DNA of 64,000 nucleotides from a virus (taxonomy: Duplodnaviria; Heunggongvirae; Uroviricota; Caudoviricetes): positions 49,251 through 113,250 of the IMG/VR virus record IMGVR_UViG_2718218135_000001, one strand, 5' to 3'. Positions 35,901 to 37,159 of the stretch are shown here, piece after piece. The notes below the pieces were generated by a model that was not told the DNA's origin, did no database searches, and saw only the letters and a program-made list of their open reading frames with translations. Position 1 is the first letter of the stretch; each line of letters starts with the position of its first letter. Made by a program: the position numbers and the translations under genes.

Positions 35901-36030
35901 AGACTAATCCTTAACTAATTTGCTTTAACTAAAAAAGAGATCGCAATCTCTTGCTAATAAATTACTAAAAATAAAAATGATAGAGCAATATAAAAGAATA
36001 TTTTTTATTTTAATCAAAAACATTTCCATG

Positions 36031-37056
36031 TGGATTGCCCCTATATTTCCAGACACTTTTTATCGCTTAACCCATTACTGGTTCGCCGCCGCAGATATTC
36101 CCGTGGAGAACGATATCCCAGTGCACTGTGCGGATGCCATTCGTTGTAATGTTCGAAGGCCTCCGCAAGGTTCTTTGCCGCTGTTAACCCGTCAGGTTTT
36201 GGCATGATACTGATGTAGTCGCGCTTCATCGTTTTCACGAAGCTCTCCGCCATTCCGTTGCTTTCTGGACTACGTACCGCCGTATGTTTTGGCTCCAGTC
36301 CTACCATTCTGGCGAACTGACGCGTCTGATGAGAACGGTAGGCTGAACCGTTGTCTGTCAGCCACTCAACGGGGGATGTCGGCAGCCTGTTACCGAAGCG
36401 ACGCTCTACTGCACCCAGCATGACGTCCTGCACGGTTTCACTGTCATATCCACCGGTACTTGCTGCCCAGTGAAGTGCCTCGCGCTCGCAACAGTCCAGC
36501 GCGAACGTGATCCGCAGTTTTTCACCGTTATCACAGCTGAACCCGAAGCCGTCGGAGCACCACCGCTGGTTACTTTCTCCAACGGCCACTTTCCCTCTAT
36601 GCGCCCGCTTCGAGGGCGGTATTGCCGGTTTACGCTCAAGCAGCAGCGCATTCTGACGCATGATGCGGTATACGCGTTTGGCATTGATCACCGCCATGTC
36701 GTCAGTTTCTGATTGTCTGCGCAGCAGTACCCATACACGACGATAACCATAGGTGGGCAGATCGTCGATAACGGTATGGATACGAGCCAGCGCTTCAGTA
36801 TCATCAGGCTTGCGCTTGCACCGACGATCCTGCCAGCCCTTCGACCGACGGGCCATGGCATGCAGTTGCGCACGTGAGACCCGGAGATAACGACTGACAA
36901 GGCTTATTCACCATCCTCCGGCAACAAGGGCACGTGCGCTATCCACTTTTTTTGTCGGCCATATTCAACGGCTTCTTTCAGCAGCTCGTTTTCCATGGTT
37001 TTTTTGCCCAGCAGGCGCTGTAACCAACTGTCTGGAGATTCATGGGGCTAGTCTAC
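36031..37056 (-). mobile_element. IS2-like insertion sequence, internally deleted (orfA mostly missing), with 5-bp target-site duplication CCATG
   Basis: Imperfect terminal inverted repeats TGGATTGCCCCTATATTTCCAGACA (36031) and rc TAGACTAGCCCCATGAATCTCCAGACA (37056); flanking direct repeats CCATG at 36026-36030 and 37057-37061; only 3' end of orfA (..[14 protein letters not shown]..) remains. Confidence 0.7.
36041..36856 (-). CDS. IS2-family transposase OrfB (InsD-like, DDE domain)
   Basis: Strong similarity to recollected IS2 InsD (…[10 protein letters not shown]…[21 protein letters not shown]…[10 protein letters not shown]…[13 protein letters not shown]…). Confidence 0.8.
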
Positions 37057-37159
37057 CATGTTTATGGAAACATAACATTAAAAATTATTTCGTAGTTTAT
37101 TTTTTAGTTTAAATTGTCAAATTCATCGGTAATGCTACCAACTTATTGATTTAGTGTAT

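Follow-up and report, generated by a model that had tools for sequence, protein, structure and literature searches.

A decayed, internally deleted ISEc36-like element upstream of a Yeh-like fimbrial operon in an SSU5-like phage-plasmid

By the ISfinder convention, isoforms of a named insertion sequence (IS) have nucleotide identity above ~90% to it. Insertion sequences may activate silent operons, as IS1 and IS5 do at bgl, flhDC and fucAO. In the IS2 group, the best described ends are those of IS2 itself, whose domain structure includes an 11-bp cleavage domain; footprinting shows strong protection of residues 39-42 in the left inverted repeat (IRL), and residues 39-48, which form the OrfA operator, are functional, as is the adjacent extended -10 promoter P_IRL, which begins at residue 48 (PMC3299598). 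Frameshifting in IS2 depends on a slippery motif; the natural window is A6G, and its mutation to A7G makes OrfAB the predominant product (PMC3299598). The promoter of the minicircle junction, Pjunc, strictly needs a 17-bp spacer, and a curvature-dependent target preference has been proposed (PMC3299598). The right inverted repeat (IRR) of IS2 can supply the outward -35 of a fusion promoter, as documented for ampC, acrEF and neo (PMC9330008, PMC11894529).

The window, i.e. the whole stretch of 64,000 nucleotides analyzed here, has an SSU5/pHCM2-like phage-plasmid backbone, 91% identical to Salmonella phage SSU5. Between the primase gene and SSU5_042, the phage itself has one hypothetical gene. 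At this position the window carries a pdcA fragment, doc and phd, followed by a Yeh-like fimbrial operon of four genes, its AT-rich leader, split by an IS relic into a 125-bp and then a 67-bp part, a 32-bp IS1 end and an ISEhe3-like orfA remnant. The cargo between the primase gene and the SSU5_042 homologue is variable (~30200-37680 in the window, 3324-9561 in L005, 4023-4988 in L013), and in the sister plasmid pYLPI6a the same place is occupied by a sulfatase/IS5 block. As the cargo differs among the sister plasmid, SSU5 and the window, we regard the site as a hot spot with IS debris. The left end of the ISEhe3-like IS3-family element (37160 to ~37592) cuts off the IS1 terminal repeat remnant (37128-37159, 29/32 identity), and a frameshifted orfA (HTH_Tnp_1) is all that remains of the ISEhe3-like element; remnants of three different IS elements thus lie within 1.6 kb. 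Elsewhere in the window, we noted an Rfam match to IS009 RNA in the phage-plasmid backbone (21707-21905, 189.6 bits), tRNA-Lys(ttt) on the minus strand (24637-24717), and tRNA-Asn(gtt) on the plus strand (41985-42059). The features of the fimbrial locus, in window coordinates, are as follows.

31091-35900, minus strand: Yeh-like chaperone-usher operon (subunit, chaperone, usher, adhesin-like gene), all four genes open
35352-35900, minus strand: fimbrial subunit gene, ATG at 35900
35901-36025, minus strand: proximal part of the leader, 21.5% GC, still next to the operon; chromosomal copies share it as far as the IS2 junction
36026-36030, no strand: left copy of the target-site duplication, CCATG, a single pentamer in the IS-free allele (L006)
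36031-37055, minus strand: whole element, internally deleted ISEc36-like, with IRL towards 37055 and IRR towards 36031
36031-36070, minus strand: IRR, with its 11-bp cleavage domain 1 bp short (TGGATTGCCCC)
36041-36856, minus strand: OrfB remnant of 271 aa with the catalytic core, open from an internal Met start
36904-37023, minus strand: OrfA remnant, 39 codons and a stop, lacking the start codon and the helix-turn-helix
36908-36910, minus strand: TGA stop that closes the OrfB frame prematurely, just past the frameshift site
36946-36953, minus strand: A7G slippery motif for programmed -1 frameshifting, retained
37023-37024, minus strand: deletion junction, 304 bp missing, GT microhomology
37024-37055, minus strand: IRL, of which the outer 32 bp are kept and the protein-binding domain has lost its inner 10 bp
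37056-37060, no strand: right copy of the target-site duplication, CCATG, read and indexed in the sequence
37061-37127, minus strand: distal part of the leader, moved 1 kb by the insertion and contiguous with the proximal part in E. coli FG92-1

The element is a 1025-bp member of the IS3 family, IS2 group, with its limits read and indexed in the sequence. Its frames are transcribed in the same direction as the operon, and it begins 130 bp from the subunit ATG, the distance given in the initial annotation. The span of 36026-37061 proposed there, duplications included, is correct at its left end and one base too long at its right end, as the second CCATG stops at 37060. The closest named element is ISEc36, with the identity, calculated over the retained 995 bp, ranging from 94% (965/1025) to 95.5% against annotated copies (megablast, complete E. 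coli genomes and PLSDB), i.e. above the isoform threshold. Still closer is a full-length variant without a name, found on Citrobacter, Klebsiella and Enterobacter plasmids; the retained parts are 98.9% identical to its 1330-bp Citrobacter copy (BLAST). By contrast, the identity to IS2 is just 79% (810/1024, chromosomal IS2 copy in L011), far from the near-identity expected of IS2 sensu stricto, and therefore the element is not an IS2 isoform. The earlier label "IS2-like" thus holds at the level of the group and fails at the level of the element. Two full-length relatives that we extracted, of 1330 and 1331 bp, have 5-bp duplications of their own (CGTAT, ATTCT). In total, 1348 plasmid records match the element, and full-length ISEc36-like elements are abundant in Enterobacteriaceae plasmids; within the 64-kb window, BLAST found no second ISEc36-like copy. 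In itself, the element is the decayed form of an insertion sequence that is already catalogued. RefSeq marks it as a pseudogene where the same plasmid has been deposited, with identical copies annotated as "frameshifted; internal stop; incomplete".

The ends are of the imperfect, ~40-bp type, IRL starting with 5'-TA and IRR ending in 5'-CA-3', and 32 bp of IRL are left. The 37055 end is an IS2-type left repeat (TAGACTAGCCCCATGAATCTCCAGACAGTTGG; IRL begins with TAGACTAGCCCC), and the 36031 end is the reverse complement of an IS2-type right repeat, which ends with GGGGCAATCCA. A repeat finder recovered an ungapped core, 36038-36058 / 37026-37046, that is 76% complementary, in agreement with the imperfect terminal inverted repeats described initially. 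In its tip the window IRR has lost one G, reading TGGATTGCCCC versus TGGATTGGCCCC in the sister plasmids L016, L017 and L010.

Alignment to a full-length relative defines the internal deletion. In the comparison with the 1330-bp relative (alignment and BLAST), full-length positions 1-33 correspond to 37055-37023 and positions 336-1330 to 37024-36031. The lost 304 bp (IS positions ~34-336) leave 32 bp of the left repeat joined to the last 39 OrfA codons, with a 2-bp GT microhomology at the junction; both the internal deletion and the "last about 40 codons" of OrfA beside the left repeat had been recognized correctly. Gone with the deletion are the inner IRL binding domain, the OrfA operator, the equivalent of P_IRL, the orfA start codon, and the helix-turn-helix. 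The 17-bp spacing that Pjunc requires in IS2 is likewise destroyed in this copy. Of OrfA, 82 N-terminal codons are deleted and the 39 C-terminal ones remain (36907-37023), with the stop at 36904-36906; no Pfam match was found in this remnant. The A7G motif at 36946-36953 is native to the ISEc36-like lineage.

OrfB, initially considered intact, is interrupted as well. A C>T substitution, silent in OrfA, has converted the CGA of full-length relatives into the TGA at 36908-36910, 13 codons past the InsD-equivalent start, and this stop is common to all deleted copies inspected. As the TGA interrupts the OrfB frame, the remaining 271-aa frame begins at an internal Met. It retains the catalytic core (Pfam rve 3e-18, rve_3 6e-19, HTH_21 2.5e-11) and has four amino-acid changes relative to the full-length relative. 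The motifs W-x-S-D, T-D-N-G and N-G-x-x-E-S, which we take to be those of the DDE catalytic residues, are visible in the OrfB translation. With the start and 82 codons of OrfA deleted and the OrfB frame stopped, a complete orfA and an OrfAB -1 frameshift fusion are both absent, so that the element, as anticipated, cannot make its own transposase fusion; therefore, it is a defective copy and not an autonomous member of the group. The lesions can be ordered: a metagenome contig and the sister plasmids keep TGGATTGGCCCC at the IRR tip, yet share the deletion and the TGA, which makes the 1-bp loss at the tip the latest event.

The two CCATG pentamers are perfect and have the 5-bp length of IS2-group duplications; the chance identity of two pentamers is 1/1024. 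We searched for an IS-free allele with the reconstructed empty site as a query in plasmids and in complete E. coli genomes. None was found in the plasmid collection, and the sole one found in total is a diverged allele (92.6% identity) in the chromosome of E. coli FG92-1. Here, the flanks are contiguous and enclose one pentamer, CTATG, the sequence being CATCTCTATGTATATGGAAAC versus CATTTCCATG, the element, and CCATGTTTATGGAAAC in the window. Since the IS-free allele holds one pentamer at the site, the duplication is real, and the direct repeats are a transposition footprint, as had been proposed; that CCATG might recur by coincidence in related sequences lacking the IS, the doubt raised at the time, is not what FG92-1 demonstrates. 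The FG92-1 operon has been destroyed by IS5, with yehD alone remaining, and no IS-free intact operon was found in plasmids or complete E. coli genomes. In the reconstructed empty site (36020-36030 plus 37061-37070), the insertion point is the centre of a 7-bp inverted repeat, TTTCCAT-GTTT-ATGGAAA, which is not conserved in the FG92-1 allele.

The right flank, the element and the left flank abut in the same accessions in ~24 E. coli plasmids (phage-plasmids). We searched for the deletion junction as an exact 22- to 30-mer in E. coli genomes, plasmids, IMG/VR, GTDB, and JGI metagenomes. It was recovered from one IMG/VR contig and one JGI metagenome contig, always at the same locus; there was no hit among GTDB species representatives, and no second locus in complete E. 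coli genomes, plasmids, IMG/VR or JGI metagenomes. Hence the spread over several loci with different duplications that characterizes MITE-like elements was not seen. As the junction was found at one site only in these collections, the element is an inherited relic and not a mobilized mini-element.

The account that we prefer, with a probability of about 0.7 for the whole, is that of an inherited ISEc36-like relic that decayed in place, is functionally near-neutral, and has no mobility. A full-length ISEc36-like element of ~1330 bp would have entered, by transposition, the AT-rich leader of a Yeh-like operon that had been acquired horizontally, in the accessory-cargo region of an SSU5/pHCM2-like phage-plasmid, duplicating CCATG. 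With a 304-bp microhomology deletion, the 82 codons at the start of OrfA would then have gone, together with the OrfA operator, the inner IRL and the promoter of the element; the OrfB frame would have been closed by a nonsense mutation; and the window sublineage would have dropped 1 bp from the IRR cleavage domain. The result would be an immobile pseudo-element inherited vertically with the plasmid. Its sole plausible present effect would be structural, the operon keeping ~125-130 bp of native upstream DNA with the rest 1 kb away. That the deletion followed the insertion we infer by parsimony, as a search of complete E. coli genomes and PLSDB yielded no full-length element at the exact site; this order is supported by the missing IRL residues, which transposase binding requires. 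Today the element is probably near-neutral in function. Strict neutrality, however, fits uneasily with the data, since every intact operon copy seen in complete E. coli genomes has an IS2-group IRR at -126 or -130, and the lone IS-free allele found belongs to a destroyed operon.

The same phd-doc-fimbrial module is present in ~30 E. coli chromosomes on pheV-associated islands, and most of these carry a full-length true IS2 of 1330 bp in the same orientation, apparently functional and with the programmed frameshift annotated. The IRR tip of the chromosomal IS2 is 4 bp closer to yehD than that of the window element (CATCTC followed by TGGATTTGCCCC; L011 7112-8454, L012 7110-8420). Its far end adjoins unrelated DNA or is cut by IS1, and a composite query of the IS2 IRL and the predicted flank returned no record of a chromosomal IS2 with a matching duplication. 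The two elements are only 79% identical, whereas the synonymous divergence of the chaperone and usher genes between the plasmid and chromosomal lineages is ~0.6%; therefore, the insertions are independent. Among the intact operon copies seen in complete E. coli genomes, all have an IS2-group IRR at one of the two positions. Coinciding insertions argue that the position upstream of the operon is special, and point either to a hot spot or to selection.

Both insertions also meet in one plasmid. In pYPE3-114k (L008 3989-5036), ~130 bp of the IS2 IRR end with a chromosomal-type flank are fused to the window-type deleted element, a hybrid that is evidence of recombination between the two insertions. 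As this plasmid is a recombinant, we rejected its missing left CCATG as evidence against the duplication. In the HeN100 chromosome and similar ones (L007 6385-6501), the leader ends abruptly at CATCTC, where a 3' fragment of a P4-like integrase gene adjoins it (CTGGATGAGCGC). Six bases, CTGGAT, are common to this junction and that of the IS2 tip, and a 6-bp microhomology deletion may have eliminated IS2 here. The pentamer TGGAT at this junction was considered as an IS stump and largely rejected, as CTG-GAT-GAG-CGC encodes an in-frame LDER of the adjoining integrase fragment.

The fimbrial genes themselves have diverged unevenly. The major subunit (35352-35900) differs from the chromosomal allele of L011 by 16 nonsynonymous substitutions and one synonymous. 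The adhesin-like gene (31091-32101) has 68% protein identity to L011, while the chaperone and usher have ~99%. The evolution of the exposed fimbrial parts looks mosaic and possibly diversifying. A related Yeh-like operon with ~80% identity resides on the P1-like phage-plasmid pE148-2 (L014 2241-8077), with IS1B ~330 bp upstream of yehD, and ~14 plasmid records hold this ~80% allele; Yeh-like fimbriae seem to be a recurrent phage-plasmid cargo. In pP59A-2 (L015 3552-3790), the match to the proximal leader ends ~73 bp short of the element and the space between them exceeds the expected one by ~105 bp, so that the leader may contain an additional insertion or a rearrangement.

The IRR faces the fimbrial operon, so the initial annotation was right about the outward-facing end, as well as in stating that IS2 insertions can create promoters, which is documented at the three loci cited above. 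Applying the 17-bp spacer rule of Pjunc (PMC3299598), we derived TGGAAA as the IRR -35. At 16-18 bp from it, the window flank offers no -10, the hexamers being ATGGAA, TGGAAA and GGAAAT, and the chromosomal IS2 junction likewise has no acceptable -10 at this distance. A canonical IS2-type fusion promoter, with a -10-like hexamer at the proper spacing from the IRR -35, is not predicted at the fimbrial junction. The promoter scan yielded one junction-spanning match on the minus strand, 36034 to 36007 (TCCACA-16-TAAAAT, 9/12). Promoter-like sites in the region numbered 3, compared to 2.0 +/- 1.4 in shuffles, i.e. there was no excess; the IS-free reconstruction gives an equally good -10 (TAAACA), and the chromosomal allele has TGAAAT in place of TAAAAT. 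No intrinsic terminator was predicted in the relic, which has also lost its own promoter. On the whole, an effect on the transcription of the fimbrial genes can be neither supported nor excluded from the sequence; as a mechanism, separation of the operon from distal AT-rich DNA (21-24% GC) would be the candidate left.

An adaptive origin of the insertion is nevertheless a possible, if unlikely, explanation. An IS2-group IRR ~126-130 bp upstream would activate or de-silence a cryptic, probably H-NS-repressed, Yeh-like operon, which it could do by cutting off distal AT-rich DNA or by contributing promoter elements. In its favor are the low GC content of both flank pieces (21-24%), the documented IS2 IRR-derived fusion promoters (PMC9330008, PMC11894529) and the 9/12 junction match, set against the lack of an acceptable -10 at 16-18 bp from the canonical -35 in both lineages, a match no better than that in the IS-free reconstruction and with a -10 not conserved in the chromosomal allele, and a promoter count not above shuffles. 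It would also explain why two different IS2-group elements are fixed at almost one position with equal orientation, the other being the independent true IS2 that lies 4 bp closer in ~30 copies on chromosomal pheV islands; the operon is intact in all IS-bearing copies inspected. That every intact copy seen has an IS2-group IRR and that the orientation is equal in both lineages favors selection weakly, as does the 16:1 ratio in the subunit, which would suggest expression and diversifying selection. On the other side, each lineage may descend from one founder. Moreover, as IS2 target choice is thought to depend on curvature (PMC3299598), a hot spot in curved AT-rich DNA would suffice to explain the coincidence without selection. 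The more general proposition, that -126/-130 is a repeatedly fixed position where IS2-group insertions (ISEc36-like on SSU5-type phage-plasmids, true IS2 on pheV islands) switch on or de-silence a cryptic adhesin operon, seems to us doubtful. If it were true, the relic on this phage-plasmid would be the fossil of an adaptive mutation in regulation.

A different history, in which the element was already deleted on arrival, as a non-autonomous mini-IS mobilized in trans by a full-length ISEc36-type transposase, would account for both termini, the perfect 5-bp duplication and the intact IRR tip in sister copies, and the 1348 matching plasmid records attest to an ample supply of full-length ISEc36-like elements in Enterobacteriaceae plasmids. 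We consider it very improbable: in every collection searched the deletion junction is confined to this single site, and the missing inner 10 bp of the IRL protein-binding domain fall in a part that is strongly protected by transposase in IS2 (PMC3299598). Finally, a different, naturally short full-length IS, or coincidental CCATG repeats, can practically be dismissed, as the element is collinear with the 1330/1331-bp relatives except for a clean 304-bp gap, its OrfA remnant lacks the start codon and the helix-turn-helix, and the IS-free allele has a single pentamer at the site.

Under the preferred reading of in-place decay, the relic as an object is of little importance and ordinary apart from the independent insertion of an IS2 relative 4 bp away in chromosomal copies of the operon. 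It can serve as a lineage marker, the insertion, deletion and nonsense mutation being shared in the SSU5-like phage-plasmid family with the fimbrial cargo. The two insertions 4 bp apart pose a question of a structural hot spot versus selection for altered expression of a horizontally transferred adhesin operon.

Compared to known systems, the element is most similar to ISEc36, with which it shares an IRL starting with TA, an IRR ending in CA, the A7G motif, the rve core, and the 5-bp duplication. Unlike ISEc36, it lacks positions ~34-336, that is, the inner IRL, the promoter/operator region and 82 OrfA codons; in addition, its OrfB frame contains a TGA, and its IRR tip is 1 bp short. With IS2 of E. 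coli K-12 it shares the group, the organization and the asymmetric ends, the difference being the nucleotide identity of 79%. Similar to silent operons activated by an IS, such as those with IS2 at ampC and acrEF, the locus has an IS end in an AT-rich region upstream of a probably silenced operon, in the orientation that puts IRR beside the genes; in contrast to them, it has no correctly spaced -10 for the canonical IRR -35.
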